Assembly: GCA_977862235.1 (NCBI GenBank)
Contig: OZ374559.1
Coordinates: 1,612,001-1,676,000 of the forward strand
Direction: 5' to 3'
Source: Dudresnaya verticillata
Taxonomy: Eukaryota
Length of the DNA: 64,000 nt
In this document: positions 3,944 to 50,486 of the stretch, one piece after another
Layout of the letters: the number at the start of each line of letters is the position of its first letter
Numbering within the stretch: position 1 is the first letter of the stretch
Made by a program: the position numbers and the translations under genes
The notes under the pieces: generated by a model
What the model saw: only the letters and a program-made list of their open reading frames with translations
The model's database searches: none
What the model was told of the DNA's origin: nothing

Positions 3944-4543
3944 ATGAAGTCCTTCAAAACCATTCTTATTCTCTCTGCAACTGTTTTGTTGTTCGCCAGT
4001 CTGGCTCATTGTACAAAGGTTGGGCTGAAGGAAGATGTAAAGAGCAATGCCGAAGCTGACACAGTCATCAATGAAAGCAAGAGAGACATCGAACTGCATA
4101 CTGATAATACTCTGGAGGCCGGTATTGAGCTCAAGGGAGATGTGAAGGCAAGCAAGGCGACGGACACAGTTCTGGGCCATGACTCCAAGATGGCCAAACT
4201 CGACACATCTGAGAAGGTTCCAGGCAGTCCCTACAGCGGTGCCTTCATTCTATGCGAGGGTAAAACTCCAGTTTCCTACCTCACAACTATCAGGACCCGC
4301 TCCATGGAGCTCCTTGCAGGCTACCGTGGCTCGTGCAGCTACAAGACTGTGGCCGGGGATGGACAGTTTAACCACGCTGCTCTGTGGAAGGGATCCTTCA
4401 CTGGAATGGACTTCTACTACGAGCGCCTTATCAACTGCGGCACTGGACAGGCTTGCGTGTACCGCCGTACTGCTAGCTCTACTGTTCCGATCTACTGCTG
4501 TTCCAGGTTTTATGAGGCGCACGTCGTGACTTTTGGCATCTAA
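3944..4543 (+). CDS. Secreted Cys-rich prepro-protein, copy 1 (long type, 199 aa), function unknown
   Basis: Intact ATG-TAA ORF; hydrophobic N-terminus MKSFKTILILSATVLLFASLAHC; acidic pro-region; C-terminal VPGSPY...TFGI domain with 6 Cys, shared by 7 paralogs. Confidence 0.9.
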   Translation: MKSFKTILILSATVLLFASLAHCTKVGLKEDVKSNAEADTVINESKRDIELHTDNTLEAGIELKGDVKASKATDTVLGHDSKMAKLDTSEKVPGSPYSGAFILCEGKTPVSYLTTIRTRSMELLAGYRGSCSYKTVAGDGQFNHAALWKGSFTGMDFYYERLINCGTGQACVYRRTASSTVPIYCCSRFYEAHVVTFGI

Positions 4544-5276
4544 GCACTTCATTCATCAGAAGCTGCCTGACGTCTCTTTCTGGACGAACATGGTAAACTA
4601 TTTAGCTCTGACTGGGGATTGTTCTAGAGCTCCTTGTTATTGATGTAAGTCCTATTAGTACAGTTGGGACATCACATTAGTCCTGATTGTCGTGGCTGTC
4701 CTGATTGTGAAAATATTATGGGAGAATAGTCAGCCCCAATAGCTCCAGATGTGTAGAAGCAGCGAACTCCGAATAAAGTTGAGAAGACGTAACGAAACAA
4801 TAGAACGCTGGCTTCCTCCAGACAGAGAGAGAACCCCTTATTAGCAACTGAGCAGGAGCCCCAAGTAATCACATAAGGATGAAAAGGAAATGTTGCCTCT
4901 ATTGTCAAAGCCGCACTTCTTCCAGAAATGGGTAATGCTCGTTAGTAGCAGTTTGGTATGGCTTAAAGGGGGCGCCAACTGGCTTCAGAAAGTACGGAAA
5001 CTTGTGTCATGAAAGCTTAAGTGTAAACGAGTGGGTGGGTGCGAGAAAGGACGGAGTTTGCCACAGAACGTCAGTGAGCAGCAGGCATTAGCGTTCTTAT
5101 ACTACGCAGTCTTAGCTACTGTACTATATTGATCCTCTTCCACTTCTTAGTCCATCACACGATCCGATGGCTGTATCCGAAGTGGCGATAGTGTTCGCGT
5201 ACAGTATCACTACAGTTATCGTCGATAATCTTAGATCCTCTGTGGGACGGTCGGAGTAGCTCCCTATTCCTAGTCC

Positions 5277-8200
5277 TATGGATCTTTGAATCTGTCATGA
5301 ACGGTTTTATTCATATTGTGTGATAATGAATCACATTGACTAGTGATCCCATTATTTACCGGTCGCTACGAAAACCTTTTGGTTGTTCTAGTTTGCTATA
5401 AGTACTTGTCACAACCTGTCACATAGATTGATAACCGCAGACGTTTCAAGAACTCCACCGCCATTTGCTGAAAACTATCTACTGGTTTATCGTTCTTCTC
5501 TTAGTTATGGGGGCAACGCCCGGTATGGCTTCTCAGCCTACCCGCCTTCGTTTTTCCTGGGACGTTAAGAATGTGCCCTGGACTGACGGAAAAGGCATCC
5601 AAGAAGAGTACCGTATTTCTGTTTCTCTATGTAATGCCTTCCATGATAAGTTACCGGAGTCTAACTCCATCAAGATACCTTTTGGTCTCCGCGGGATGAT
5701 GTTACAATCCCAGCTTTATAGCAGAGCTCGAGATCTCAAAATCAAATCAATTCCAGATGCTACGATACAATCTGATTCGGATCGGATGCCATTGTCAAGG
5801 CCATCTACAAGCGTTACGCACTCACAGTAGTGATTGAGGTCTACCATGATTTTATATCAATTCTAAATACCAAGCGTGGTTCAATGGAGACGTTTAATAA
5901 CTTTCAATCTCGCTTTCATGCGCAAGTATCTAAATTCAATTACAATTCATCAAATACGAGGTTACTGGATGCGTTAACCGCGTTCATGTTGCTTGCCAAT
6001 TCGGCAATAGATGCGAGCCAAAAAGTCTCTGTACTCGCTGCTGCATCTCCTTCCAATGGTTCAGTATCTTCCGATTCTACAACACACCAGTTCCTTGATT
6101 CAGTTTCTTATGAATTTGTTACTTCCGTGTTGCGCCAGTGTGAGCAGACGAAAGCTCATGATGTTGGCTCTCCTAACACTACAATTTCAGATCTAAGTTC
6201 TACGAAAGGTTCATTTGGGTCCAACTCTCATAAGAAGCATGGGAAAGGGAAACCAAGCCTCACTCCTGAGCAACTTGCTGACCTAAAATCACGATCTAAA
6301 TGTCGTCAGTGCCACAAATATGGCCATTGGCAGACAGAACATAACTCAGATGGTTCTCTTAAGCCTGGGTCAAATCTTCACCTGAAGCTGTTAGTGTTTC
6401 ACAATCATCATCCGGATCACCAAAGAAAAAGACTATTCGGTTCAATATGGTACAGTGTTCCGACCGTTGTTCCCTTGAGACAGAATTTGTTGGCCCAATA
6501 CTGGATAACGGGGCACCATACAGCGGTATGGGGATGGAAGAGTTCCTTCTCTTGCAGCCTATGATTGTTCCGGCATGGGATCGAAACCTGCTACCAATAC
6601 CTGAAGAGATACAACCGTTTCCGTTCTAGCAGTACGGTACTGGTCAACACTCCAGTGACTCAAGAAAGATACTCGGATCTGTTATCCTGAAGGCCAGTAC
6701 TGACCGGAAGGGAACTGCTTTCATACGACATCTTATAATCGAAGGCTCATGGCAATGGGTTGTTGGTCGTAACATGACCAAGTACTGTGATATTTTACAT
6801 AGGAGAAAAAACAAGATTGTACTCCCCGATTCCCTGGATTCAATCTCCCTGATTGATGCTAACTTTCACAGTCACATGCCATGCAACATCTTTGTCCATA
6901 GAGACCTGTACTGTTCACCGTCAATGACAAGCAAGATATTTTGTGCCACTGCTACGGTATCAGACTCTAACGCCAATCGGCCTTGGAATGAGATTAAGAA
7001 AGTGATCGACAAGGTTCACGCCCATGTTTGTGGACACTCGAATTACTCAGATATTAAGATATTGCTCGAACGAAACGGGCTTTGGGGTGGTGAAGCTCAG
7101 AAATATCTCCGTCGCATTATAGAAAAATACCCAAGCTGTGAAACGACATCCAAATCTGCCGCCACTCGCAAAGTCTCAGTAAATACTATTAGCCGTGCGT
7201 TCAATGAGGTCGTTTGGATCGACCATTTACACCTTGAGGATCTTAGGGTGTTTCACGTGAGGGATTCTGTGACACGTTACTCCGACGGTGATGTTGTGTC
7301 AGATACCTCTATGAATTGAGCAATCCTGGTCCTTGAAACTCGGTGGAATTCTCAGTTCTGGGTCCCTTCGGCTATTTTATATGACTCTGCATTCAAAAAC
7401 GCTGCATTTGCAGCATATCGGAAGAACAATGACATTGAGGCACGACCAATGCCTCCACGGAGGCATAATAAGAATGTAATTGAGTCCAAGCACAAGGTGA
7501 TTCGTGGCACATACCTACGCTTGAAGCATGAGATGCCTAATTGCACGATTGATTACCAAACGTTACTCATACGGCAAGCATTGCGCATTTCGAGCGATCT
7601 GTACGGCACCGATGTTTGCTCTGCACATGAATTGGCTAAAGGGTACACCAGGCCAATTACTGCTTGCTCATTCCCAGTTCGAGTCCCTCAAGACCTCTTG
7701 GCTGCTCACGATGAACTCATTGCCAAACGCAAGCTAACGAATATTCTACGGTCCAAATCAATAACAGAGTTGCCTATTAATGTTGGAGATATTGTTCAAA
7801 TTTTCATGACACATCAACACGAGAAAAGAGGCAAGTGGTCTGAACCATGCACTGATATATCCGTGGATAACGCCTAAGGTACCATTACTGTTCCAGGTAA
7901 GAAAGGACGCTCTGTTTCTGCAGCACGAGAAGAGTCAGAGCAGCTATTACGGAAAGTTCTCTCGCTTCCTCCATTCAAGAAGCAATTGATGCAATAACCG
8001 TCACTGTTGAAGAGGCCATTGATGAAACTAATGAAAATCAAAACGGTAACGAATCAGATACTACCCAACCTATTCACGAAAGCTATGATGTGGAAAATTT
8101 CGAGAATGGTCAAGAAGATATTTTATCTACCCCACCTGGTGTTGGTGTTTCAATAGAGGTTTATTGGCCTCTTGACGAAAGTTTCTACCCCGGTACTGTT

Positions 8201-8559
8201 GCTTCGGTTAATGAAGGGCATACATGTGATATTGAATATGATAATGGTGATGAAGAGACTCTTAATCTGGATGATGAGACATGGCGCTACCCCTCTAACG
8301 ATGCATTAGCCACGAATACTGCCACGATTCAAACAGCGGAGCTGCAAAGTACGGAGCAGGAAACTCTGTTGGAATATGAAAAAATGTTCGGAATGAAAGA
8401 CTTTATGATGCACGAAACACAAGGTCTGTCATCATTCCCCCTTATTAATGCCTTTTTAAAAGAAGAGAGCAACTTCAAGAAGACTGCTACATTGGTTACT
8501 GTCTCTGACATCCCGAAAGATGCAAATGTAATAACAAGTCACGTTATCTACAAAGTTAA
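5277..8559 (+). mobile_element. Inverted partial duplicate of the Copia element (LTR-gag-PR-INT)
   Basis: Mirror of the right-arm copy; LTR 5277-5425; lacks RT/RNase H. Confidence 0.9.
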
Positions 8560-8739
8560 CCTTATAGTAAGAATTTATGTGGGTATGACCGCGTGAAGGG
8601 TAGTATTAGCCCGGCCAGGTCTCGAAAAATAAACAAATTTCTATATCGATGCGCCAACGAATCCACTTGGTGCCACAATAGTTTCTACGCATCCGAAATT
8701 ATATCTCAAATACACGGCCGCAGCGCCAATGAAAAAAAT

Positions 8740-8766
8740 CAGCAGCAGCAGCAGCAGCAGCAGCAG
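8740..8766 (+). repeat. (CAG)9 microsatellite (mirrored at 10683-10709)
   Basis: Directly visible. Confidence 0.95.
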
Positions 8767-8982
8767 AGCTCACCATTGATTGGCGATATGGTGCTCCTTA
8801 CAGCCGACACCTTTGCTGTGCGCCTGATTTCTTAATTTATTCCTTTACTTTTGTGCGCACGCGACCGCCGTTACACCCCGCGCCTGCCTTCGCCGCGGGG
8901 ATTATCATACCAGCACCCAGCGCCGTCCCGCGCCGAAGACGCGGGGTCTAGCGGCGCGCAGCGCTGCCCCCGCCGAGGGCGG

Positions 8983-11900
8983 AGATCCGTCAAAGATCCA
9001 TACTCATCTCTCTCTGTAAAGGGAATCAACCATTCACAACTGGTTTAATTGTCTTGTAATTGCCTCACCCAGATCAATCGACAGTGTGCTGGAAAACAGA
9101 GTTAGTTGTAGAGCGTGGGTAAGAGGACTGTTGGTCTTGCTCAGAGGGTCAGTTAAGTTGATCTTTCCTGGAACCCAGACCATGCGGGTGATATTTTGGG
9201 TTTCAAACTCGTATCTGATAAGGTTAACATCAGCCAGAATGGATCTGTCAATCGAATTGCGACAAGTTGACAATGTGGTGAATAAATCTTTGGAATCAAC
9301 CACAAAATTCAGGTCGATCTGCATATCAAGTAGTAAACTGATAGCTTTGCATAAAGGCTTGCCTTCATCAATGGCTTCACCTGCAGCAAGAATCTCAGCA
9401 GCTCCAATAGACTTGACGGGCCTTTTTGACTTATGGCATGACCATGATAAGGTGTGCAATATAGAGCCAAGCTCAAATTTTCCTAGCAGCAATCCTGACA
9501 CATACTCAAGTTGCCCATAGTCTTCGGATCGGCTGGCATCAGAGAAAACAACAACAGAGATCTCATAAGAACTGTTGTCAGTGGGGCGGTTATATTTGAT
9601 TGTCGTGCCCAACTTTTGTAGTAGACGAAGCGAGTTGATCTGGGTTACAATATGACCAACCGTTGGAGTGGGAGCTTTTTGCTGCAAATAGCTTGCGTAG
9701 AATGCACAGAACGGAGAAATGGAAATCCCTAGCCACTCAGTAGACCTGTTCACAGAGCGGAAAGCTCTATTTTCAATCGCATTCAGTTGCTCTGCGTACT
9801 GTTTTCTTCTGTTTCGGTCAATAGAATGTGGTACCACTTAACAGCTTGAAGCTTATCATCGGCATCAATAGAGATCGAGAAACCATTGTCTTGAGTGATA
9901 TGTAGCCCGTAAAATAGGAATGTTCCTGGAGCATAGAATACTGTACCAAGCTTGTACATAGTCTCAATTTTTATATGCTCTTCTTCACCTTCTGAAGATT
10001 TCTAGCAAACAGAATGTCGTCCACAATCTTAATTGCGATCAGTTGTAGTCCGTCCGTGTTACTAATGTATAATAACTGTGGAACGTAGATGAGCTGCAGA
10101 AAGCCCCTCATTGAATGATCTGAGGAATACATCACTTTGCTCCTGCCATTTCGCATTTTCGTTAACTAATCCATACGCTGCAGGGCGTAATAGCCAATAG
10201 TGGGAGCCATCCTTGCTCTCTCGAGGTGATATCACGTACACATCTCGTTTGGCATCACCAGTTTGAAGAAATGCGCTTGTAAAGTCTATTTTTTGCCAAG
10301 CACCACTTCAACATACAGGAAATAGACAATAGTATTCGAATGCCAAGGGGAGCATATGTTGCACAGTCAGTCTTCATTTTGTGCTTCTCCTTGTTTTTGT
10401 TACCATGTGGCGCGATACGGGCCTTCATCTTCTTGGTGCCATCATCATTACTTTTAACAAGTCGCACCGCCCTCGGCGGGGGCAGCGCTGCGCGCCGCTA
10501 GACCCCGCGTCTTCGGCGCGGGACGGCGCTGGGTGCTGGTATGATAATCCCCGCGGCGAAGGCAGGCGCGGGGTGTAACGGCGGTCGCGTGCGCACAAAA
10601 GTAAAGGAATAAATTAAGAAATCAGGCGCACAGCAAAGGTGTCGGCTGTAAGGAGCACCATATCGCCAATCAATGGTGAGCTCTGCTGCTGCTGCTGCTG
10701 CTGCTGCTGATTTTTTTCATTGGCGCTGCGGCCGTGTATTTGAGATATAATTTCGGATGCGTAGAAACTATTGTGGCACCAAGTGGATTCGTTGGCGCAT
10801 CGATATAGAAATTTGTTTATTTTTCGAGACCTGGCCGGGCTAATACTACCCTTCACGCGGTCATACCCACATAAATTCTTACTATAAGGTTAACTTTGTA
10901 GATAACGTGACTTGTTATTACATTTGCATCTTTCGGGATGTCAGAGACAGTAACCAATGTAGCAGTCTTCTTGAAGTTGCTCTCTTCTTTTAAAAAGGCA
11001 TTAATAAGGGGGAATGATGACAGACCTTGTGTTTCGTGCATCATAAAGTCTTTCATTCCGAACATTTTTTCATATTCCAACAGAGTTTCCTGCTCCGTAC
11101 TTTGCAGCTCCGCTGTTTGAATCGTGGCAGTATTCGTGGCTAATGCATCGTTAGAGGGGTAGCGCCATGTCTCATCATCCAGATTAAGAGTCTCTTCATC
11201 ACCATTATCATATTCAATATCACATGTATGCCCTTCATTAACCGAAGCAACAGTACCGGGGTAGAAACTTTCGTCAAGAGGCCAATAAACCTCTATTGAA
11301 ACACCAACACCAGGTGGGGTAGATAAAATATCTTCTTGACCATTCTCGAAATTTTCCACATCATAGCTTTCGTGAATAGGTTGGGTAGTATCTGATTCGT
11401 TACCGTTTTGATTTTCATTAGTTTCATCAATGGCCTCTTCAACAGTGACGGTTATTGCATCAATTGCTTCTTGAATGGAGGAAGCGAGAGAACTTTCCGT
11501 AATAGCTGCTCTGACTCTTCTCGTGCTGCAGAAACAGAGCGTCCTTTCTTACCTGGAACAGTAATGGTACCTTAGGCGTTATCCACGGATATATCAGTGC
11601 ATGGTTCAGACCACTTGCCTCTTTTCTCGTGTTGATGTGTCATGAAAATTTGAACAATATCTCCAACATTAATAGGCAACTCTGTTATTGATTTGGACCG
11701 TAGAATATTCGTTAGCTTGCGTTTGGCAATGAGTTCATCGTGAGCAGCCAAGAGGTCTTGAGGGACTCGAACTGGGAATGAGCAAGCAGTAATTGGCCTG
11801 GTGTACCCTTTAGCCAATTCATGTGCAGAGCAAACATCGGTGCCGTACAGATCGCTCGAAATGCGCAATGCTTGCCGTATGAGTAACGTTTGGTAATCAA

Positions 11901-14172
11901 TCGTGCAATTAGGCATCTCATGCTTCAAGCGTAGGTATGTGCCACGAATCACCTTGTGCTTGGACTCAATTACATTCTTATTATGCCTCCGTGGAGGCAT
12001 TGGTCGTGCCTCAATGTCATTGTTCTTCCGATATGCTGCAAATGCAGCGTTTTTGAATGCAGAGTCATATAAAATAGCCGAAGGGACCCAGAACTGAGAA
12101 TTCCACCGAGTTTCAAGGACCAGGATTGCTCAATTCATAGAGGTATCTGACACAACATCACCGTCGGAGTAACGTGTCACAGAATCCCTCACGTGAAACA
12201 CCCTAAGATCCTCAAGGTGTAAATGGTCGATCCAAACGACCTCATTGAACGCACGGCTAATAGTATTTACTGAGACTTTGCGAGTGGCGGCAGATTTGGA
12301 TGTCGTTTCACAGCTTGGGTATTTTTCTATAATGCGACGGAGATATTTCTGAGCTTCACCACCCCAAAGCCCGTTTCGTTCGAGCAATATCTTAATATCT
12401 GAGTAATTCGAGTGTCCACAAACATGGGCGTGAACCTTGTCGATCACTTTCTTAATCTCATTCCAAGGCCGATTGGCGTTAGAGTCTGATACCGTAGCAG
12501 TGGCACAAAATATCTTGCTTGTCATTGACGGTGAACAGTACAGGTCTCTATGGACAAAGATGTTGCATGGCATGTGACTGTGAAAGTTAGCATCAATCAG
12601 GGAGATTGAATCCAGGGAATCGGGGAGTACAATCTTGTTTTTTCTCCTATGTAAAATATCACAGTACTTGGTCATGTTACGACCAACAACCCATTGCCAT
12701 GAGCCTTCGATTATAAGATGTCGTATGAAAGCAGTTCCCTTCCGGTCAGTACTGGCCTTCAGGATAACAGATCCGAGTATCTTTCTTGAGTCACTGGAGT
12801 GTTGACCAGTACCGTACTGCTAGAACGGAAACGGTTGTATCTCTTCAGGTATTGGTAGCAGGTTTCGATCCCATGCCGGAACAATCATAGGCTGCAAGAG
12901 AAGGAACTCTTCCATCCCCATACCGCTGTATGGTGCCCCGTTATCCAGTATTGGGCCAACAAATTCTGTCTCAAGGGAACAACGGTCGGAACACTGTACC
13001 ATATTGAACCGAATAGTCTTTTTCTTTGGTGATCCGGATGATGATTGTGAAACACTAACAGCTTCAGGTGAAGATTTGACCCAGGCTTAAGAGAACCATC
13101 TGAGTTATGTTCTGTCTGCCAATGGCCATATTTGTGGCACTGACGACATTTAGATCGTGATTTTAGGTCAGCAAGTTGCTCAGGAGTGAGGCTTGGTTTC
13201 CCTTTCCCATGCTTCTTATGAGAGTTGGACCCAAATGAACCTTTCGTAGAACTTAGATCTGAAATTGTAGTGTTAGGAGAGCCAACATCATGAGCTTTCG
13301 TCTGCTCACACTGGCGCAACACGGAAGTAACAAATTCATAAGAAACTGAATCAAGGAACTGGTGTGTTGTAGAATCGGAAGATACTGAACCATTGGAAGG
13401 AGATGCAGCAGCGAGTACAGAGACTTTTTGGCTCGCATCTATTGCCGAATTGGCAAGCAACATGAACGCGGTTAACGCATCCAGTAACCTCGTATTTGAT
13501 GAATTGTAATTGAATTTAGATACTTGCGCATGAAAGCGAGATTGAAAGTTATTAAACGTCTCCATTGAACCACGCTTGGTATTTAGAATTGATATAAAAT
13601 CATGGTAGACCTCAATCACTACTGTGAGTGCGTAACGCTTGTAGATGGCCTTGACAATGGCATCCGATCCGAATCAGATTGTATCGTAGCATCTGGAATT
13701 GATTTGATTTTGAGATCTCGAGCTCTGCTATAAAGCTGGGATTGTAACATCATCCCGCGGAGACCAAAAGGTATCTTGATGGAGTTAGACTCCGGTAACT
13801 TATCATGGAAGGCATTACATAGAGAAACAGAAATACGGTACTCTTCTTGGATGCCTTTTCCGTCAGTCCAGGGCACATTCTTAACGTCCCAGGAAAAACG
13901 AAGGCGGGTAGGCTGAGAAGCCATACCGGGCGTTGCCCCCATAACTAAGAGAAGAACGATAAACCAGTAGATAGTTTTCAGCAAATGGCGGTGGAGTTCT
14001 TGAAACGTCTGCGGTTATCAATCTATGTGACAGGTTGTGACAAGTACTTATAGCAAACTAGAACAACCAAAAGGTTTTCGTAGCGACCGGTAAATAATGG
14101 GATCACTAGTCAATGTGATTCATTATCACACAATATGAATAAAACCGTTCATGACAGATTCAAAGATCCATA
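8983..14172 (-). mobile_element. Copia-order LTR retrotransposon, degenerate, 3' LTR truncated
   Basis: 5' LTR 14172-14024; gag with Zn knuckle CRQCHKYGHW; protease ILDNGAP; integrase (HAHVCGH, VWIDH); RT (KARIAPHG, IVDD); RNase H (FSDAS, AAEILA, VDSK) in INT-RT-RH order; PPT agagagagatgag then a 20-bp LTR stub at 9002-8983. Multiple stops and frameshifts. Confidence 0.9.
10458..10889. mobile_element. 432-bp non-autonomous insertion flanked by TTAA
   Basis: Removing it and one TTAA restores the Copia frame YKV-KSNDDG; TTAA at 10454-10457 and 10890-10893; no TIRs; GC hairpin at one end. Truncated mirror at 8560-8982. Confidence 0.8.
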
Positions 14173-15321
14173 GGACTAGGAATAGGGAGCTACTCCGACC
14201 GTCCCACAGAGGATCTAAGATTATCGACGATAACTGTAGTGATACTGTACGCGAACACTATCGCCACTTCGGATACAGCCATCGGATCGTGTGATGGACT
14301 AAGAAGTGGAAGAGGATCAATATAGTACAGTAGCTAAGACTGCGTAGTATAAGAACGCTAATGCCTGCTGCTCACTGACGTTCTGTGGCAAACTCCGTCC
14401 TTTCTCGCACCCACCCACTCGTTTACACTTAAGCTTTCATGACACAAGTTTCCGTACTTTCTGAAGCCAGTTGGCGCCCCCTTTAAGCCATACCAAACTG
14501 CTACTAACGAGCATTACCCATTTCTGGAAGAAGTGCGGCTTTGACAATAGAGGCAACATTTCCTTTTCATCCTTATGTGATTACTTGGGGCTCCTGCTCA
14601 GTTGCTAATAAGGGGTTCTCTCTCTGTCTGGAGGAAGCCAGCGTTCTATTGTTTCGTTACGTCTTCTCAACTTTATTCGGAGTTCGCTGCTTCTACACAT
14701 CTGGAGCTATTGGGGCTGACTATTCTCCCATAATATTTTCACAATCAGGACAGCCACGACAATCAGGACTAATGTGATGTCCCAACTGTACTAATAGGAC
14801 TTACATCAATAACAAGGAGCTCTAGAACAATCCCCAGTCAGAGCTAAATAGTTTACCATGTTCGTCCAGAAAGAGACGTCAGGCAGCTTCTGATGAATGA
14901 AGTGCTTAGATGCCAAAAGTCACAACGTGCGCCTCATAAAACCTGGAACAGCAGTAGATCGGAACAGTAGAGCTAGCAGTACGGCGGTACACGCAAGCCT
15001 GTCCAGTGCCGCAGTTGATAAGGCGCTCGTAGTAGAAGTCCATTCCAGTGAAGGATCCCTTCCACAGAGCAGCGTGGTTAAACTGTCCATCCCCGGCCAC
15101 AGTCTTGTAGCTGCACGAGCCACGGTAGCCTGCAAGGAGCTCCATGGAGCGGGTCCTGATAGTTGTGAGGTAGGAAACTGGAGTTTTACCCTCGCATAGA
15201 ATGAAGGCACCGCTGTAGGGACTGCCTGGAACCTTCTCAGATGTGTCGAGTTTGGCCATCTTGGAGTCATGGCCCAGAACTGTGTCCGTCGCCTTGCTTG
15301 CCTTCACATCTCCCTTGAGCT
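10467..15321. repeat. Palindrome 1, right arm
   Basis: Mirror of 4128-8982; 1484-bp spacer at 8983-10466. Confidence 0.95.
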
Positions 15322-15520
15322 CATCTCCCTTGAGCTCAATACCGGCCTCCAGAGTATTATCAGTATGCAGTTCGATGTCTCTCTTGCTTTCATTGATGAC
15401 TGTGTCAGATTTGGCTTTGTTCTTGACATCTTCCTTGAGGTCAACCTTTGCACAATGAGCCAGACTGGCGAACAACAAAACGGTTGCAGAGAGAATAAGA
15501 ATGGTTCTGAAGGTCTTCAT
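14906..15520 (-). CDS. Secreted Cys-rich prepro-protein, copy 2 (long type, 204 aa, extra ELKGD)
   Basis: Intact ORF; C-terminal domain identical to copy 1; in-frame 15-bp duplication in the pro-region. Confidence 0.9.
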   Translation of the reverse strand: MKTFRTILILSATVLLFASLAHCAKVDLKEDVKNKAKSDTVINESKRDIELHTDNTLEAGIELKGDELKGDVKASKATDTVLGHDSKMAKLDTSEKVPGSPYSGAFILCEGKTPVSYLTTIRTRSMELLAGYRGSCSYKTVAGDGQFNHAALWKGSFTGMDFYYERLINCGTGQACVYRRTASSTVPIYCCSRFYEAHVVTFGI

Positions 15521-16805: not shown

Positions 16806-19800
16806 TGTGGCAGATCCCTAGCCGTGGTCTAACCTGGGAACTGTGCGTGGGAGAAACTGATGTCTTCCTCCTTTATTGTAGGAGAGGGCCATACCCGATG
16901 GCTTAAGTACCGTAGAATAAGCGGTGCGATGCTGGGCTGCACCCGGTCGATGGTGACCGGCTGTTCGTGTGCTACATGTGTATGCTGTCCGCGTGGATTC
17001 TAAATGTCAACTACCAGAACTCTCTAGGCCATATCGCTAGTGGCCTACAAACTCTCTGGGCCATATCGCTAGTGGCCTACACTCCTCTCTCCTCGAGGAG
17101 ACGCTAGGACAACGTGCGTCTCGCACGATCGACTTTGCGCTGATCGGGGTATCCCTCAAGAAACGTTTCCAACATTTCTGGAATATCTTCATGCATAGTT
17201 CTTATGGGCTCCCATGTAGGCTCTTCATGGTCAAAACCTCGCCACTTTGCCTCCACCATCCACATGCGTGTCGACCTGTCATACTGTAGGTCTAGTATTT
17301 TTGTGACCGTGTTATAGTGCGGGGCATTATGGTCGATTGTATCCAGTAGTTCTTGTGTTGTTTCTAACTGTGAGTCAGAATAAAACTTGAGTCGGTTTGC
17401 GTGCACCAGCGAACGCTTTTCGTTGATGAGATCTTCAACCTCATAAACCCACTCTGAGTCCGTGCGTGTAATACGTTGGGGTCCTAGCCATTGCATTCGT
17501 AACTTGTGGCCGTCGTTAGTTATACGTTTGGCTACTAGAACATAATCCCCGACAGTAAAGTTGACATTCTGAATTCCTGTCTTCGCATTATGTGCCTTGA
17601 CAGCAGCGTCACGGCGTGCACTTCGTCGCTCGGACACATCCTTATGAATCTGTCCTAGTGCACTCAGGAGCTCCTCGGTATTGATTATCTGCCTAGCCCT
17701 TACTTCCTCAAGCGTCTTCGGATCTGCTGAGCTTGAGGGTATTATGAGGCGTAGAGGGTTGTCGGCCGGGAGGCCTGTGAAAACGGTGATAGGTGCACGG
17801 TTGCCGAGGGCCCTCCTTGTACTGTGATTCAGAACCGATTGAATTATGGGCAGAACTTGCGGCCATTCTGTTTCCTTCATGCGGAATTCTGACAGAAGCG
17901 CTCTGCAGCACCTTAAAACTTCTCTGCATACTCTTTCGACTGTTCCATTTGCCTGAGGAGTGTTTGGAGCCGTAAAGTGATGATGGGAGTGTAGCGTTTT
18001 GTTAACAGAGTCCATAAGCTTGTTCTTGAAATGGCTTCCTCTATCAGAGACCCACACTGGGACTACGCCAAATGCTGCGAACCAGCTCAGAAGTGATGAG
18101 GATGCCGCTGCAGCCGTAGTTTCTCTTGCTGGTTGTAGCCAAGTGTATGTCGATGCATCGTCTTTCATATTCATTACATACTCTTCTCCAGTGTCACTGC
18201 TACCCATAAAGAGGAAATCGAAATGAAGAACCTCGTTGGGCTTGTCTGCATGTAGTGCATGACCCAGAGGACGTGGGGTTCTTTGTCCTCCAATTGTGGA
18301 TACGCAATGAAGATAGGACTTACAAAAGACACTGATATCATCAGACATATTATCCCAAAATTCATACCGTTTGATATTGGAAATAGTGGCGTCGGTGCCG
18401 CGGTGTCCTGCTCTACCGCAGTGTCCCACGACACAAATGCGTAGTTGCAGTTGTGTATCGCTCTCTGGGATCCATACTGCTCCATTCGCGTTCGTAATCA
18501 AACCATTCGTCAGTGTTCCTCTGACCTTTGCTCTCTCTTCGGATGTTGCGCGCCCTTGCGAGTTTGAAATATCGCCAGGGGATGGCCATTGCAGATCTGG
18601 ATCGTACTCGGGGGCTACGGGGGCAGTAAACAACGCGGAAATTCTCATGTGCTCCAGCTCGTTTTGGCTGTGCTGTTGCTGTGGGGCTGCCCATCTTGAT
18701 AGAAGGTCTGCCCAGCAGTTTTGCTCACCACTTATGTGTACAATGGTATAGTTAAACATTGAAAGCGTGAGTCCCCATCTCTGTACCTTATTGAAAATTG
18801 TCTTGTTCATGCGTACGTTCGAACGTTCGGGGTGATACAGGAAGACGAGATTGCTGTGGTCGGTGAAGAGGTGAAAACCTTTAGGGCGCAGTAGTAAATA
18901 ATCCAGACGCTCGCAGCTCTTCACGATTGCGAATGCCTCCTTCTCTGGGGTCGACCATCGAAGGCTTGCTCCTTTGAAGGACCCTGAAATAAAAGCTAGC
19001 GGTTCATGCGCTTGTTCCTCAAAAGACAAGTCCAGGTGCTCATTAGGTATCTGTGTAAGCAATCCTGACCAGTGCAAATCACTTGCATCAGTGAAAAGAC
19101 AGAACGTCCTATCCGGGTCCGGGTGCGTAATGGTTACGGCATTCATCAAGGCTTTCTTTGAGCTGAAGAAGGCTTTCTTGTGGTCCTCGCCCCAACCTAC
19201 ATCAGATAGGTTCACTTTTCCGGCTTTTTGCCTTGTTCGTCCTCCAGCTTTGACGTATACATCCTCCAATAAAAGAGATAGCGGAGCTGTTAAGGTCGTA
19301 AACTCCGGAATGGCAGAGCGCATCCAGTTCGCTGCGCAGAGAAACTGTTGCAGCTCGGACCCTTTCTGTGGCTCTTGCATGTTCAGGAGGGCTTCTAATC
19401 TAGATGGGTCCATTCTAACCCCTTGAGCGCTTATAAGTCTGCCGCACCAGCGAACTGTCGTTAGGAACAACTTGCATTTCGCTGCATGCAACTTCAAACC
19501 ATGTGTTTGGCATATATCAAAGAACTGTTCCAGGCTATTCAATAGGTCAGCTGCGTTAGCAGCATGAAATAGCATATCATCTAGCCATAACAGGAACTTC
19601 TCCTCAAGAACCCTGGTCATCGCTTGAATGGAGCTTTGGCAGTATGCAACTGCGTTTCGCTGCCCATGCATAACTCTCGTTGGGCTGAATACTCCGCCGG
19701 GAGTGATGAAGCTCTGACACTCTTGGGATGATTCATCGAGCGGCAGTTGCCAGTATCCTTGACAGAGGTCAATAGTGGCGAAGAACCTCCGCCCAGTCAG

Positions 19801-31136: not shown

Positions 31137-31169
31137 CGGAAAAGGCGTGGTATGGTCAGTGGAGAAGAG

Positions 31170-34226: not shown

Positions 34227-34325
34227 ATTTGATGTAGCTGAATGGGTTTGTGAAGAGAGTGAGCTGGACTGTATGGTTTCCTGTGGGGTTTATCGAAGAA
34301 ACTAGTTAGGCTGAATGAACCGTTC

Positions 34326-34332
34326 TTATATA
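34326..34332 (-). promoter_or_regulatory. Putative TATA box of copy 4
   Basis: TATATAA about 100 bp upstream of the ATG. Confidence 0.6.
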
Positions 34333-35012
34333 GCGCCTTTAGTTGGGCTGCGCTGATCTGCAAAGTATGTTGTTGCGGATAGCTATGGTGCTGTGCCGAA
34401 AGCTGCAGAGCGGCTTTCTGGATCAGAGGAGAAAATAGAATCCGCAAATGGTGTAATGGGTACTTTTTGCTCTACCAGAAACAAAGACACTGCTTGCCGC
34501 ATTGTTGTACAGTATCATTCCACAATGCGTGACTTAGCTTCTTTACCATACATCTATCCAATGTTATTAAAGGTCTAGTACCAATACATGAAACAAATTC
34601 ATGGTGCTGCATTGAAAACTCAAACTATCCATGAAATAGTATGTTTCTGCAATATGTTGCAGTGAGTGTTATCCACGGCAAACTTTCTGCAGTGCAAAGT
34701 GCTTTTCCAACTCCCCCTGTGGCGTTTACTCATTTAGAATGTTCGTAAATATCTTGCCCCATAATGTATTGCTAATTATGGTCTTTTCCCCGTAAATGTT
34801 CAAAACGCGAGCTTCTTGAAACTTGGTGCGCTCTCTTCTGTGATTGCGTTCCTTGCTTGCACTTTAGGTGTTTTTATCCAGCAATCAATGTTTTTTCTTT
34901 ACAATATGTGTTGTCGATCTCCATTTGTAGTAAGTATGCATTCTGTCTTTACCAGATGAGACACGAGCTGGATTTGGTTATATCAGCTGGAGGGCGCTTT
35001 ACGTATCACCCT

Positions 35013-37519: not shown

Positions 37520-39810
37520 CCCACGTATTCCGCGCATGCGGTTTTGGCTTTATTTCTTGTTCCGTAAAGCGCTCAGCAATGTATTGTTGTAATACAACAA
37601 TGCTCAATCTATCTCGATCCATTGTACATAGAAGAGGCAGTAGGACATTTACTGCTTTAGAAGTTGCTCGAGGAAGGGGAGCGCATGACAATGCTTCTGC
37701 TCTATTAAAGAGAGAGGGACCTTTATTGAAGGGCAAGAGAGAAGCCCCTTGACGCGGCTTAGGAACCAGAGCTAGCATACAGAGACGGAGCAGCTACACT
37801 AGCTTGCGACGATTGGTTATTAAACAAAACGAGTAACAAAGAGGACTGCACTTTACGCATGGAATGGATAATTTTGCGAGTAACAAATCATTTTCGTCTA
37901 TTGCTTTGCCAACTCTTTGCGATTACTGTGGGCATTAATGTCGAACCTACGGACTTCCCGTGAGGTTTAGACAAGGCAAGTGAAAATACATCCGAATGGA
38001 ACTCACCATAGACGTTCTCCGTACTGGCAGATGAAGCCGGCGCTTCAGACGAGAATGCTTCAATTTTCTGCATACAAGGCCGCACCACAGGCTGCGCCTC
38101 GCCTCGGCGCAGAGCTGCACATGGTAAATGTGAAGCACTCACTCTTCTCAACGGATTATAACACAATTCCAGCTGCGCATGAAAACCCTACAAGGCCTCT
38201 CCTGTTTTTATTTCCGCGCTCCCTGTGCTAAGAAGACAACTTGCTGGTTCATGCCGCGTTGTGCGTAAGGCTGTACACTTTTGTAGCTGGCGATTATCTC
38301 TCATCTCCCTGTTGTACACCAATATAGATCATATGCAGCAGTGCGGCTTGAAATGGCAGTACTCGAGATATTTGCTGCAGATGCTTGGTGCAGTTGTTCC
38401 AACGCTTCAGGACTTTTCCTCTTTACCATTTTGTCATAAGCCTAACAATCTAACCGCAGAGCTCTAGTGTATAGGGTGATACGTAAAGCGCCCTCCAGCT
38501 GATATAACCAAATCCAGCTCGTGTCTCATCTGGTAAAGACAGAATGCATACTTACTACAAATGGAGATCGACAACACATATTGTAAAGAAAAAACATTGA
38601 TTGCTGGATAAAAACACCTAAAGTGCAAGCAAGGAACGCAATCACAGAAGAGAGCGCACCAAGTTTCAAGAAGCTCGCGTTTTGAACATTTACGGGGAAA
38701 AGACCATAATTAGCAATACATTATGGGGCAAGATATTTACGAACATTCTAAATGAGTAAACGCCACAGGGGGAGTTGGAAAAGCACTTTGCACTGCAGAA
38801 AGTTTGCCGTGGATAACACTCACTGCAACATATTGCAGAAACATACTATTTCATGGATAGTTTGAGTTTTCAATGCAGCACCATGAATTTGTTTCATGTA
38901 TTGGTACTAGACCTTTAATAACATTGGATAGATGTATGGTAAAGAAGCTAAGTCACGCATTGTGGAATGATACTGTACAACAATGCGGCAAGCAGTGTCT
39001 TTGTTTCTGGTAGAGCAAAAAGTACCCATTACACCATTTGCGGATTCTATTTTCTCCTCTGATCCAGAAAGCCGCTCTGCAGCTTTCGGCACAGCACCAT
39101 AGCTATCCGCAACAACATACTTTGCAGATCAGCGCAGCCCAACTAAAGGCGCTATATAAGAACGGTTCATTCAGCCTAACTAGTTTCTTCGATAAACCCC
39201 ACAGGAAACCATACAGTCCAGCTCACTCTCTTCACAAACCCATTCAGCTACATCAAATATGAAGTCCTTCAAAACCATTCTTATTCTCTCTGCAACTGTT
39301 TTGCTGTTCGCCAGTCTGGCTCATTGTGCAAAGGTTGAGATGAAAGAAGATGTCAAGAACAATGCCGAAGCTGACACAGTCATCGACGAAAGTAAGAGAG
39401 ACATCGAACTAGATACCGGTAATGCTCTGGAGGCCGGTGTAGAGCTCAAGGGAGATGTAAAGGCAAGCAAGGCGACGGACACCGTTCTGGACCATGACTC
39501 CAAGATGGCCAAACTCGACACCTCTGAGAAGGTTCCAGGTAGTCCCTACAGAGGTGCCTTCATCCTATGCGAGGGTAGAACTCCAGTTTCCTACCTCACG
39601 ACTATCAGGACTCGCTCCATGGAGCTCCTTGCGGGCTACCGGGGCTCGTGCAGCTACAAGACTGTGGCCGGGGATGGACAGTTTAACCACGCTGCTCTGT
39701 GGAAGGGATCCTTCACTGGAATGGATTTCTACTACGAGCGCCTTATCAACTGCGGCACTGGACAGGCTTGCGTGTACCGCCGTACTGCTAGCTCTACTGT
39801 TCCGATCTAC
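37520..39810. repeat. Palindrome 2, right arm
   Basis: 635-bp spacer at 36885-37519. Confidence 0.95.
39153..39159 (+). promoter_or_regulatory. Putative TATA box of copy 5
   Basis: TATATAA about 100 bp upstream of the ATG. Confidence 0.6.
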
Positions 39811-39858
39811 TGCTGTTCCAGGTTTTATGAGGCGCACGTTGTGACTTTTGGCATCTAA
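39259..39858 (+). CDS. Secreted Cys-rich prepro-protein, copy 5 (long type, 199 aa)
   Basis: Intact ORF; mirror of copy 4 (coordinate sum 73485). Confidence 0.9.
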   Translation: MKSFKTILILSATVLLFASLAHCAKVEMKEDVKNNAEADTVIDESKRDIELDTGNALEAGVELKGDVKASKATDTVLDHDSKMAKLDTSEKVPGSPYRGAFILCEGRTPVSYLTTIRTRSMELLAGYRGSCSYKTVAGDGQFNHAALWKGSFTGMDFYYERLINCGTGQACVYRRTASSTVPIYCCSRFYEAHVVTFGI

Positions 39859-40543
39859 GCACTTCATTCATCAGAAGCTGCCTGACGTCTCTTTCTGGAC
39901 GAACAGGGTAAACTATTTAGCTCTGACTGGGGATTGCTTCTAGAGCTCCTTCTTGTTCTTGATGTGTAAGTCCTGTTAGTAACTATTAGTAAAGTTGGGA
40001 CATCACGTTAGCCCTGATTGTCTTGGCGCCCAGATTGCGGCAAATTCATGAGAGATTAGTCAGGCCCAATAGCTCCTGATGTGCAGAAGAAGCGTACCCC
40101 GAAGAAAGCCGAGAAGACTTAACGAAACAATGCAACGCTGGCTTCCTCCAATCGGAGAGAGAAACCGCTATTAGCTACTAAACATGAGCCCCAAGTAAGC
40201 AAATAAGAAGGTGCGAAAAGCTTACATGAAGTTCTACGATTATTCAGCAGCAGTCGGCATAATGCAGTAGCAGTGAGTGACTAGTATCGGAGGACACAGA
40301 AGACAAGACGGGGATAGAGTGCAGGGAGGATGGATTGTCATGGACGGAAGGTGTATAATTACTGCAGTGAAGTTGAAGATGCGGCCATTAGCCATGATGC
40401 AACACCGGCATGAATGCGGCGGTAAACTATTATAGTTCGTTTAGATCCATAAATAGTAGACTCCGTTACTGCACTCCGCTCTGCTTTACCTGGCTGCCAG
40501 ACTTGGCTTTCGGAAAAGGCGTGGTATGGTCAATGGAGAAGAG

Positions 40544-42606
40544 ATGGAGACCTTTATGCACAGGAAAAAATACAGCCCCGTAAGGAGGCTTATCTAAAAC
40601 TCATCTGAAAGGCGACGGTCGAAGAGTAAACGAGAGAGGTGAGGTGGGTGAGAAGAGATAGTTTCTCAGATATCGGCGAAGTACCCTTCATAGTAGCTAG
40701 GAAATTCGCCACGCGCTGAGCGCCTCGATCGAACCCAGAACCAATGGCACCATAGATGTCCATCACCATAGGATGGAGATCTATCCGGTTGGTAGAACAT
40801 AAGCGACGATAATGACGGGCTTTCGCTTGCTCGCGGCGGTGAATAGCTTGATGTTGAGAGCGAGGCGTGTTGGGCAGTGTAGTTGGATGGTGTGGGGTCA
40901 CCACGGAGACGTCAAACGCTTGCGGGAGGGGGGCAAACGCAGGGTCATCAACATAGAAATCCATACGAAGATGGTCACGTCGGTCTTCTTCGAAATGGTC
41001 TTCAGTACGTTGTAATTGACGGGCATAGCGACGCCTTTCTGAAGCAGTGCGTGTAGAAGACGCCACAACTCGGGAATCCCCAGTCTGCTCTAGATAAGAA
41101 AAGTTACGTTCAAGCTGAACAGTAACGCCATGGTTCCGAGCAGTATTACGAAAGAAAGCCCCAATTTGATTTCGGAGGGTAGCATGGCGGCGAATGCTGC
41201 CAGTTCCCGATCGACAGATTGTGGCATGGTGTCCAAAGATATCAAGGAGGGGAACTTCAGCGGATGTGCCATGGAGACAAGCAGGACAAGGGCGATCACC
41301 ACGGAAGATCGCCACACGCAGTCTGAGTTTGAGCATGGTGAGCCATATGTCGGGTTGCACGCGGGTAGAAGAAGATGCATATGGGATGGCACTGAAAGGG
41401 CGGCTAGAGTTGACAGTAGAGGTAGATTGAATCCGTACTCGGGCACGAGAGCTATGCTGAGCAGTCATCTGGGACATGAGGTCGTGGCGCATTTTCGTTG
41501 AACATAGGGAAGAAGATCTTGGGACAATGTCGGAACGACACCATGGCCTATGGGAGATGCGGCCGATAAAATAGAAGAAACACTGCATTTGTCACGATCT
41601 TCACGGAGTAGTTGCTGTTCGCGAATGTTATGAAGAGACGGAGCGACGAAACGGTGCAAAGTAAGAGAATCAAAAGGTGCCAGGAATCGGATCCAGGCGA
41701 GAGAGGACAGGACGGAGGTGATATAGCTGCAGTGGGCAATATGACGGGCATTGGTAAGACCTAGTACACCGTGACGCATGGGGAGCGAAACCAGATCCCA
41801 GGATTCATCCGACAGTGGAAAGTGTGTGTGTTCAAACACTCCACGCATGCCACAGTCATGTGTTAATGAAATAGCTTGGGTTAGTTGGGGGGGAGTGCAT
41901 TGCAGTAGGTATGAAAGCTTGGAAGTTCCAGCACAGTAGCGTAATGAATGAAAAACGAGTTCAGGATCATTAAGATGCTTCAGATGGGTCCAGAAATATT
42001 GGATGGGCTCATGCTTAGTTTGTAGATGTTGTAAACAGCCCTCAGTACTGCCAATAGGGGCGCCCAGAACTGCGATAACAGCATGGTTGTTGAGAGGACA
42101 ACCCAGGGAGTTGGAACGAGAAACACGACGGGACGATAAAGAGGACCACCAAGCTTCTGTTTTCCCCACTGCTATGTGCAGATTGAAACCAATTTTGGGG
42201 CATTGGGTCTTTAAAAACTGGATAACATCGAAAGCAATAGAACGGGGAACAGCAACAATAATTTTATCAGCATATGCAGCAAGAAGTTTGATGGAGGCGA
42301 ACGTAGAGAGCATGTTGATGAGCAGGGGATGAATCGCGAGAGCAAAAAGTAACATGCTCAACGGATCACCCTGCTGTGTACCTGTCCCACTAAACAACTG
42401 AAACTGACAAAATTGAAGAACGGGGTCAGTCGAGAAAAGGAATGCACAAAATTTGCAATCCCAGGAGCTCTTTCGATAACTTCACTGAGAATAAGAGAAC
42501 GATCAACACAGTTAAAAGCGTTGGTGGCATCAAGCTTAAGAAGGACATAGTCTTGCTCAGTGTTAAACTCCACGAAAGAACGTATGGCATGAATAATAGA
42601 TTCGGC
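40544..42606 (-). mobile_element. 5'-truncated CRE/R2-type retrotransposon B
   Basis: LDATNAFN, GTQQGDPLS, YADK (degenerate), CPAC..H..C, RRH, RMD..FDVSV; frameshifted; no clear TSD. Confidence 0.9.
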
Positions 42607-43140: not shown

Positions 43141-43373
43141 ATAGCACTCCGTTCTCATAGCACGGATGAATTCAACTCTCTCACTCCCTGCCTCATCTGC
43201 GCTATCCTCCGCTACAGTCAATCAATTCAAATTTCTCCAGATTAATCGTAGAACTTCATGTACTGTACGTCATTTGGAGGAGACCAGCATTCTTGAGACC
43301 CGATCTTCTCAACTTTTACCCGATCTATGCTGTCTCAACTCTGCCGGGGCTACTGGACCTTCCTTCTCTCTAG

Positions 43374-44354
43374 AACATTAAGGAAAGCTACTCAACGCAA
43401 TGGTTCGGTTCCTGGCATTCAAATGTCCATTACGGATAGTATTATGGCTGCCCGTGCAGCTGTACTCCGCTCTCCATCGCTTTCCTCGCATTCTTCAACA
43501 GTGCAAAAATCGTACATGGCTCGTCTACTGTCCTGCAGCACGGCTGCAGCTAGTGCACCTTTTACTGCCCTCCCGAATTCCTATCGCGGTACTCGCTTCA
43601 CCCCGGAGGAATGGATTACCGCGTGTGATATCCGCTTGGGTAACCCGGTTTTTACCGGCACTACTCGTTGTCCCCACAATGACACTGTGTACTCACGCGG
43701 GGCGTGACGCAAGCTCCTCTACTTGATCCTCTCGGGAAACATGCCATCATCTGCGCTAGGCGCGAAGGTGCTATCCGGCGTCATAACACCTTACGCGATG
43801 TTCTAGCCAACGAATTCCGCCAGTTGGGCCTACGCCCTATCTATGTCGAATACTCGTTTCTCGCCGAACGTCATCTGCCCCCTACTTCTCGTCGCCGTAT
43901 GGACGTGGTGGTTCCTATATCTGCCTTTAACCCCCGCCCTCAGGCCTTTGACGTTACGGTGGCAGCCCCGTTTGCTGCCAATTACTGCACTGCCGCCTCT
44001 CGCTTGGGTGGGGCAGCGGCAACGCTCGCTGAAAGGCCCAAAAGAGCGCATTACCAAGATCTACTCGACAGCGAGGGAATGGATTTCTATGCTGTCGGTA
44101 TTGACTCCTACGGCGCTATTGGCACTGAGGCTCGTCAGGCGTTACGTGCCATTGGCCGCTTTACGTCCGAACAGAGAGGGAGTAACCCTTCGGACGAAAC
44201 GCAAGCACTCACGAATCGCATTGTATCTCATCTTCTCCGATTTCAGGCGCTGGCGATCAATCGCCGTCGTCTTGCCCTTCAGGTAGGTCCTTGCGTAGAC
44301 GGGGCGACTTAGCGCCCTTCCAACCCTACCATAAAGGTCCCCATCTCTCTCCCA
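43374..44354 (+). mobile_element. 5'-truncated CRE/R2-type retrotransposon C (RLE region only)
   Basis: RRHN, RMDVV, FDVTV, K.AHY; TSD TCTCTCTAG at 43365-43373 and 44355-44363; empty site near 33460. Confidence 0.9.
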
Positions 44355-44525: not shown

Positions 44526-45056
44526 TTAGATGCCAAAGGTCACGACATGTGCTTCATAAAACCTAGAACAACAGTAGATCGGAACAGTAGAGCTAGCAGT
44601 ACGGCGGTACACGCAAGCCTGTCCAGAGCCGCAGTTGATAAGGCGCTCGTAGTAGAAGTCCATTCCAGTGAAGGATCCCTTCCATAGAGCAGCGTGGTTA
44701 AACTGTCCATCCCCGGCCACAGTCTTGTAGCTGCACGAGCCCCGGTAGCCCGCAAGGAGCTCCATGGAGCGAGTCCTGATAGTCATGAGGTAGGAAACTG
44801 GAGTTCTACCCTCGCATAGGATGAAGGCACCTCTGTAGGGACTACCTGGAACCTTCTCAGAAGTGTCCATTTTGGCCATCTTGGAGTCATGGTCCAGAAC
44901 TGTGTCCGTCGCTTTGCTTGCCTTCACATCTCCCTTGAGCTCGACACCGGCCTCCAGAGCACCATCTTCCTTGATTTCAACGTTTTCGCAGTGAGCCACA
45001 CCGGCAAAGAACAGAACTGCTGCGGAGAGGACGAGAACGGCTTTGTAGGACTTCAT
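44526..45056 (-). CDS. Secreted Cys-rich prepro-protein, copy 6 (short type, 176 aa)
   Basis: ATG at 45056 (MKSYKAVLVLSA); same shortened pro-region as copy 3; TATATAA at 45161-45167 (-). Confidence 0.88.
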   Translation of the reverse strand: MKSYKAVLVLSAAVLFFAGVAHCENVEIKEDGALEAGVELKGDVKASKATDTVLDHDSKMAKMDTSEKVPGSPYRGAFILCEGRTPVSYLMTIRTRSMELLAGYRGSCSYKTVAGDGQFNHAALWKGSFTGMDFYYERLINCGSGQACVYRRTASSTVPIYCCSRFYEAHVVTFGI

Positions 45057-45701: not shown

Positions 45702-45760
45702 GCATTCGGATGCTCTCCAGACCTACTTATAGCATTCGGATGCTCTCCAAACCTACTTAT
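45702..45760 (+). repeat. 30-bp tandem duplication
   Basis: gcattcggatgctctcca(g/a)acctacttat x2. Confidence 0.9.
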
Positions 45761-49786: not shown

Positions 49787-49793
49787 TATATAA
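49787..49793 (+). promoter_or_regulatory. Putative TATA box of copy 7
   Basis: TATATAA 100 bp upstream of the ATG. Confidence 0.6.
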
Positions 49794-49886
49794 GAACGGT
49801 TCATTCGGCGTCACTCGTTTCTTCGATAAGCTCCGCAGGAAACCATAAGCCCAACTCACTCTCTTTACAAACCTTCAGTGTCAAAT

Positions 49887-50486
49887 ATGAAGTCCTTCAG
49901 AACCATTCTTATTCTCTCTGCAACCGTTTTGTTGTTCGCCAGTCTGGCTTATTGTGCAAAGGTTGAGCTCAAAGAAGATGTCAAGGACAAAGCCGAATCT
50001 GACAAACTCATTGACGAAAGTAAGAGAGACATCGAACTAGATACCGGTAATGCCCTGGAGGCCGGTGTCGAGCTCAAGGGAGATGTGAAGGCAAGCAAGG
50101 CGACGGACACCGTTCTGGACCATGACTCCAAGATGGCCAGAATAGACACATCTGAGAAGGTTCCAGGCAGTCCCTACAGAGGTGCTTTCATCCTATGCGA
50201 AGGTAGAACTCCAGTTTCCTATCTCACAACTATCAGGACTCGCTCCATGGAGCTCCTTGCGGGCTACCGTGGCTCGTGCAGCTACAAGACTGTGGCCGGG
50301 GATGGACAGTTTAACCACGCTGCTCTGTGGAAGGGATCCTTCACTGGAATGGATTTCTACTACGAGCGCCTTATCAACTGCGGCACTGGACAGGCTTGCG
50401 TGTACCGCCGTACTGCTAGCACTACTGTTCCGATCTACTGTTGTTCCAGGTTTTACGAGGCGCACGTTGTGACTTTTGGCATCTAA
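49887..50486 (+). CDS. Secreted Cys-rich prepro-protein, copy 7 (long type, 199 aa)
   Basis: ATG at 49887 (MKSFRTILIL); intact ORF; TATATAA at 49787. Confidence 0.9.
   Translation: MKSFRTILILSATVLLFASLAYCAKVELKEDVKDKAESDKLIDESKRDIELDTGNALEAGVELKGDVKASKATDTVLDHDSKMARIDTSEKVPGSPYRGAFILCEGRTPVSYLTTIRTRSMELLAGYRGSCSYKTVAGDGQFNHAALWKGSFTGMDFYYERLINCGTGQACVYRRTASTTVPIYCCSRFYEAHVVTFGI

Follow-up and report, generated by a model that had tools for sequence, protein, structure and literature searches.

An alternating array of seven near-identical genes for an unnamed, probably secreted cysteine-rich protein in Dudresnaya verticillata

A stretch of 64,000 nucleotides from Dudresnaya verticillata (assembly GCA_977862235.1, contig OZ374559.1, positions 1,612,001 to 1,676,000 of the forward strand; hereafter "the window", with positions counted from its first letter) carries an array of seven genes for a cysteine-rich, probably secreted protein whose family is undescribed as far as tested. 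The domain that ends every one of these proteins is under strong purifying selection, and the copies are likely kept alike by recombination. From sequence and a structural model, we tentatively read the product as a bulk extracellular glycan-binding protein, lectin-like and possibly metal-assisted, with a role at the cell surface or in defence and made from a concertedly evolving array, a reading that we favour but hold to be short of probable.

A scan of the window for open reading frames (ORFs) found seven uninterrupted ORFs oriented +, -, +, -, +, -, +, which agrees with the intact, alternating paralogs reported in the initial annotation; its word "intronless" fits these uninterrupted frames, in so far as ORFs by themselves can speak for it. 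Two 5' types occur, one with a long (L) and one with a short (S) pro-region. All seven proteins end in a 108-amino-acid (aa) domain with six cysteines, including a CC pair, in which exactly 6 residues and 26 nucleotides vary among the copies, just as had been described for length, cysteines and variable positions. The copies are the following:

Copy 1, 3944..4543, + strand: L type, 199 aa, domain at 4217-4540
Copy 2, 14906..15520, - strand: L type, 204 aa, pro-region with a 5-residue ELKGD duplication
Copy 3, 27901..28431, + strand: S type, 176 aa, 3' tail type a
Copy 4, 33627..34226, - strand: L type, 199 aa, 3' tail type b
Copy 5, 39259..39858, + strand: L type, protein identical to that of copy 4, 5' part as in copy 4 and 3' tail as in copy 3
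Copy 6, 44526..45056, - strand: S type, 176 aa, 5' part as in copy 3 and 3' tail as in copy 4
Copy 7, 49887..50486, + strand: L type, 199 aa

The 3' parts of copies 1 and 2 are identical by way of an inverted duplication. Copy 3 has an additional in-frame ATG farther out, at 27568; its start at 27901 agrees with the starts of the other copies and is preceded by a TATA box at -114. Such a box lies at -100 to -114 in six of the seven copies, in L and S promoter types alike. When the window was searched with a profile of the family, no eighth or decayed copy appeared (next best E=1.8).

The selection on the domain that had been proposed is plain in its substitutions, with 20 synonymous and 6 non-synonymous changes (binomial p=1.5e-8) and, across the seven copies, proportions of synonymous and non-synonymous differences (pS and pN) of 0.115 and 0.009, a ratio of 0.076; in the signal and pro-regions the pN/pS ratios are near 0.33. 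The earlier term "effector", in the sense of an arms race, does not suit a domain that is homogenised and purified rather than diversified.

From -250 to +90, the L copies (1, 2, 4, 5 and 7) and the S copies (3 and 6) differ at 46-50% of sites, while the first 250 nucleotides of the domain differ by 0-4.4% across all seven. Copies 3 and 5 differ at 13 of 21 synonymous sites within codons 1-31 but at just 4 of 78 within the domain (Fisher p=5e-8). Because selection on the protein alone cannot homogenise synonymous sites, sequence exchange is needed to explain this contrast. The copies are also mosaic: the four-gamete test, run on 120 pairs of informative sites, fails for 19, the 3' tails pair copy 3 with copy 5 (8 differences in 661 bp) and copy 4 with copy 6 (6 in 177), and the 5' ends group the opposite way, 3 with 6 and 4 with 5, as would be expected from crossing-over or conversion inside inverted copies. 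Paralogs that are over-similar even at synonymous sites, together with mosaic haplotypes, are the mark of concerted evolution. Dosage selection on the array is plausible, and two promoter types serving one product is an equally good reading.

Relatives of the domain occur beyond the window. Fifteen of 19 phmmer hits are true relatives, and other searches added four more; the remaining hits (P0007, P0009, P0017 and P0018) were rejected as repeat-protein artefacts, three being unscored and one reaching 7 bits against the family profile. A partial, chimeric-looking member (P0006) was excluded from two alignments (A2 and A3). Its N-terminus resembles a copia RNase H fragment and its C-terminus is off frame, so that it probably represents, in another genome, a disrupted copy joined to the remains of a transposon. 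A profile built without the window subfamily recovers all seven copies at 92-93 bits. The conserved domain spans 107-118 aa at a median pairwise identity of 33%. Among the distinct rows of the family alignment, C40, H53, E69, C74, C95, E100 and A101 are invariant (17 of 17), C13 and E14 are present in 16 of 16, H102 and F61 in 16 of 17 and W57 in 14 of 17; C80 and C94 are jointly present in five rows and jointly missing in 14.

The family is likely secreted and of pre-pro architecture, in line with the secreted protein first proposed, given a hydrophobic N-terminus in 14 of 16 family rows and a K or R immediately before the domain in 12 of 16. Signal cleavage would fall near residue 23, and removal of the pro-region after the basic residue preceding VPG would release an 11.9-kDa disulfide-bonded all-beta mature domain. 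Its disulfides would lie among C13, C40, C74 and C95, with C80-C94 as an extra one in the window subfamily, and a putative binding site would be built from E14, H53, W57, E69, E100 and H102. An AlphaFold2 model from 19 sequences is confident and predicts an all-beta domain of eight strands and one short helix (predicted local distance difference test, pLDDT, 87.1; predicted template modelling score 0.78). Comparison of this model with solved structures gave no clear match, and no internal repeat was found in the domain (hhalign probability 0.2%).

That the family could not be recognised at first is upheld by database searches. Pfam gave no family at E<=1 for copies 1, 5 and 6, and for 18 alignment members only three unrelated hits, one each in three of them (E 0.1-0.14); NCBIfam returned a single weak, unrelated hit across 19 members, and Rfam had no match. 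A word-indexed protein search confirmed 0 of 114 candidates for the full protein and 0 of 19 for the domain, and when six copies, the extended version of copy 3 and three transposable element (TE) proteins were looked up exactly, no identical entry was found. No relative was found in plasmids and phages by tblastn. Pattern scans, which reach only close relatives, confirmed 0 of 291 and 0 of 67 matches in metagenome contigs, 0 of 70 in viral contigs and 0 of 71 in prokaryote genomes. A feature search of the ESM Atlas gave no usable hit, its GH18 structure rows being dismissed as coming from a model of pLDDT 0.34, and KAL-1 of Kappaphycus was rejected as a relative, being an unrelated L-type lectin. 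Six family motifs occur in none of the main texts searched, a literature that left most subscription papers and bioRxiv supplements out of reach, and the supplements of PMC12502185 hold no motif match. The family is unnamed in every source reached, and it is in the family that the novelty lies; clustered genes for secreted cysteine-rich proteins and conversion between inverted copies are of already-known kinds.

A motif search of about 2,900 gene rows from the supplement of the Asparagopsis taxiformis genome paper brought out a gene of that species, Ata01690 (166 aa, 0 introns, SignalP 0.983), which is annotated "No description", without BLAST hit or Pfam domain (PMC12115072, File S1b). Like the window family it is intronless, has a signal peptide and a pro-region and, judged by eye, shows the motifs CE, C, HxxLW, F, E, C, C and EAHVV; it differs from the window copies in having four cysteines (the C80/C94 pair is missing), an acidic domain and no paralog among the two genes listed on its contig. 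Ata01690 is an undescribed relative, not a member of a known family, and the unnamed family is likely red-algal.

That a small beta domain with disulfides and a predicted secretory route is encoded many times over in identical form would fit a protein needed in bulk; its unvarying His, Glu and Trp look more like a specific ligand site than a matter of overall charge. Typical lectins of red algae are, according to the portion of PMC11766507 covered here, small and stabilised by disulfides. By that description, small disulfide-rich lectins such as HCA of Hypnea cervicornis (90 aa; chains of the hypnin, HCA and BTL types have about this length) and the Pfam-defined rhodophyte lectins (C-type, L-type, jacalin/griffithsin, ricin-type and OAAH) are like the window protein in being small, with disulfides, predicted beta structure and a likely extracellular location; profile hidden Markov models of the Pfam-defined classes find no match in the family. 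The folds characteristic of those classes are the beta-prism, beta-trefoil, jelly roll and C-type folds, and the calcium-dependent LecB/PA-IIL lectins have a nine-stranded beta-sandwich whose Ca-binding loops are acidic. Several observations weigh against a glycan-binding protein from such an array. A sequence search of the PDB with the family found no match, and no lectin family was matched by sequence. The invariant His and Glu are equally compatible with a catalytic or a purely structural role, and Ata01690, which has every invariant family residue, was compared by eye only. Copy 1 is the sole copy without a TATA consensus, having TATACA instead (window 3833-3850), and may be weakly expressed despite its intact ORF. 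The near-perfection of two inverted repeats, described below, is a further such point.

The conserved residues also bear on whether the product is a small secreted enzyme, with His and Glu as a catalytic or metal site acting on wall polysaccharides or microbes and a pro-region that blocks activity until it is cleaved. Pre-pro architecture is typical of zymogens, and besides the cysteines and A101 the residues fixed at 33% median pairwise identity are E14, H53, E69, E100 and H102. We nevertheless regard an enzyme as unlikely: with 108 aa the domain is small, a close relative (P0003) has Ile in place of H102, no enzyme family is matched by sequence, and seven near-identical copies would better suit a stoichiometric role.

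Quantity would equally matter if the product were structural, a bulk component of cuticle, mucilage or attachment matrix whose gene was amplified because much of it is needed. Such a protein would fit the number of near-identical copies, their TATA promoters and the strength of purifying selection, and the rhodophyte VWAs, as treated in the part of PMC12115072 covered, give a precedent for an expanded secreted matrix family in red algae. The domain, however, is globular and non-repetitive, lacks an internal repeat and has invariant polar residues, and we think this explanation quite unlikely.

All seven copies combine a basic domain (+4 or +5, isoelectric point 8.8-9.0) with an acidic pro-region (-3 to -7), as would a cationic antimicrobial of the defensin or thionin kind that is held neutral by an acidic pro-piece up to its secretion. 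Alpha-defensins and thionins are pre-pro, cysteine-rich defence peptides, and the array resembles them in its signal peptide, acidic pro-region, basic cysteine-rich mature part and clustered multigene locus. The charge pattern is, however, not conserved in the family, in which the domain ranges from -3 to +10 over 19 rows and the pro-region from -7 to +6; the domain of Ata01690, counted by hand from its supplement row, is net acidic at about -8. Defensins are about half as long as 108 aa, and the conserved 107-118 aa exceed the length of defensin and thionin mature peptides, which is below about 60 aa. With the array homogenised rather than diversified and no sign of diversifying selection, an antimicrobial of this kind is improbable.

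The arrangement of the genes can be accounted for by the way in which they were copied. Under independent orientations, strict alternation of seven genes has P=1/64, but the orientations are not independent, since a head-to-head pair that is copied in tandem yields alternation of itself; the initial idea that alternation is separately maintained is therefore not supported. The raw gaps between copies are, in order, 10362, 12380, 5195, 5032, 4667 and 4830 bp. The spacing of 4.7-5.2 kb first claimed after removal of recent TEs holds for gap 2-3, which is 4899 bp once two TEs are subtracted. Equal treatment leaves 3141 bp for gap 3-4, 4091 bp for gap 4-5 (minus its tandem duplication) and 3690 bp for gap 5-6, or about 1790 bp if the second long interspersed nuclear element (LINE) is also removed, so that the regularity is partly coincidence. 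A length of 4.8-4.9 kb is common only to the two head-to-head L/S gaps (2-3, 4899 bp; 6-7, 4830 bp). These two spacers are inverted homologues, each flanked by an L and an S gene in head-to-head orientation; from this, an old L/S pair in that orientation, its genes some 4.8-4.9 kb apart, is the likely unit of the array. Window positions 1..2400 (+) are a direct repeat of the copy 6-7 spacer (45928-48327; 23 mismatches in 2400 bp), and the array therefore likely continues leftward, with a further copy, predicted to be of S type, about 870 bp to the left of position 1. Just upstream of copy 6, the unique DNA at 45687-45927 holds a short tandem duplication of about 33 bp.

The palindromic structure reported earlier is present as two inverted repeats, one tail to tail and one head to head:

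4126..8982: tail-to-tail inverted repeat, left arm (4857 bp; 1 mismatch between the arms)
8983..10466: non-palindromic spacer, 1484 bp, with the reverse transcriptase (RT)/RNase H end of a minus-strand copia remnant
10467..15323: right arm, partner of 4126..8982
33673..35934: head-to-head inverted repeat, left arm (2262 bp; 1 mismatch between the arms)
34994-35934 / 35913-36853: tandem duplication of 941 bp after the head-to-head left arm
37551..39812: right arm, partner of 33673..35934

Both repeats have their outer borders inside genes, the tail-to-tail left arm within the pro-region of copy 1 and the head-to-head left arm in the last codons of copy 4; beyond these borders the flanks continue in register as diverged paralogs of 86-90% identity. 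The inner end of the tail-to-tail left arm is a short hairpin, CCGCC-GAG-GGCGG (5-bp). The front part of the copia remnant is present in both tail-to-tail arms; the remnant is whole on the right and cut on the left at 8982, at this hairpin. A 422-bp GC-rich insert (8561-8982 and 10467-10888), of which no further copy was found in the window, splits the copia RT remnant and bears the hairpin of the foldback junction.

Single mismatches in 4857 bp and in 2262 bp raise the question of whether the palindromes, and hence one or two of the copies, are assembly or library artefacts (foldback chimeras or collapsed polishing). The mismatches are alleles seen in other copies, a pattern that mis-polishing could also give. 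We consider an artefact improbable, however, as the in-register, diverged flanks outside the arms argue against it, as do spacer-specific TE insertions and six distinct 5' haplotypes, which would persist in any case.

Palindromes that are nearly perfect from arm to arm, in a stretch rich in TEs, could also suggest a protein of gamete recognition or fertilisation encoded in a sex-linked amplicon, by the analogy that the initial annotation drew with ampliconic genes on non-recombining chromosomes. Ampliconic palindromes of the mammalian Y have arm-to-arm identities above 99.9% and conversion that homogenises their genes. Those in the window share the near-identical arms and the homogenising conversion, but they are small and local, with arms of only 2-5 kb that end inside genes and hold no whole genes. 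The domain has not diversified, and Ata01690 lacks a paralog on its contig among the two genes listed there. In the main text of a paper on the Gracilaria UV sex chromosomes (PMC12502185), a term search found 0 occurrences of "amplicon", "palindrom" and "gene conversion". Nothing was found for the analogy itself, and we hold a sex-linked amplicon to be very improbable.

Another parallel is offered by foldback inversions and inverted copy-number variants of the type formed by origin-dependent inverted-repeat amplification (ODIRA), a route described in yeast and human in the portions of PMC10622511 and PMC10766186 covered here. As in those systems, the arms in the window are inverted and near-perfect, the spacer between them is short and non-palindromic, one inner junction has a small hairpin and the outer ends lie in homologous repeats; the window differs in that the resolving repeat is the gene itself and in that the route is read from end products (PMC10622511, PMC10766186). 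The 4857-bp arms with one mismatch around an asymmetric 1484-bp spacer have the form of a foldback duplication, and the first inverted repeat, as an end product, would match foldback copying resolved by homology in the neighbouring paralog. With the gene as resolving repeat, each such event would rewrite part of a paralog. The array may therefore have arisen by tandem copying of a head-to-head L/S pair, which would give the alternating orientation, with later reshuffling when inverted copies crossed over or converted one another (as seen in the exchanged tails of copies 5 and 6) and further reshuffling by foldback-type inverted copying resolved within a neighbouring paralog.

The spacers have also taken up TEs of several classes:

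16806..22158, - strand: young Ty3/gypsy chromodomain long terminal repeat (LTR) retrotransposon, inserted in spacer 2-3
22484..24616, - strand: Tc5/pogo-type DDE DNA transposon, inserted in spacer 2-3
26248-26505, - strand: fourth related non-LTR piece
29093..31146, - strand: 5'-truncated non-LTR retrotransposon with target duplication, spacer 3-4
40541..42440, - strand: non-LTR retrotransposon remnant, spacer 5-6, 46% aa identity to the 29093..31146 element
43372..44348, + strand: third related non-LTR fragment, spacer 5-6

The Ty3/gypsy element has LTRs that are 99.6% identical and open frames of 378, 416 and 916 codons, with coding in three frames. Outside the array, a DIRS-like retroelement (52938-57376) has overlapping frames of 1164, 460, 271 and 232 codons and flanking 379-bp direct repeats of 97% identity. 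The statement that every TE frame is broken fits the fragmented copia, pogo and LINE remnants, but the Ty3/gypsy and DIRS-like elements have the long open frames given above. The four non-LTR pieces are mutually related (35-49% aa identity), three have CT-rich tails and purine-rich sites, and two lie about 20 bp apart at the homologous place of spacers 3-4 and 5-6, which hints at a target preference. A gag-like ORF at window position 58490 shares a motif and flanking segments with three genes among the A. taxiformis gene rows covered, with BWQ96_07965, which bears the prefix of Gracilariopsis chorda, as best hit. Together with Ata01690 and the scans of prokaryote, viral and metagenome contigs, which reach only close relatives, this points to a florideophyte red alga as the likely origin of the window.

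The array is of an ordinary type, and the function of its product is put forward as a hypothesis. A bolder version, which we consider possible but doubtful, would make the domain a novel all-beta fold whose His/Glu site binds metal or sugar and which represents a red-seaweed-wide class of secreted lectins or glycan-active enzymes missed by annotation, and would have two ancient promoter/signal-peptide types kept driving one mature protein that is continually re-homogenised by inversions and foldbacks resolving inside the gene. Unusual lectins are known from red seaweeds, and genome screens with Pfam profiles are blind to families such as this one. The family puts forward a definite small protein that can be expressed, that has a confident model without a clear structural counterpart and whose candidate residues are named; A. 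taxiformis, a named species, has a public proteome and expression data. The locus itself is a clean natural record of how a coding domain is kept uniform in an inverted gene array that retains two widely different promoters.

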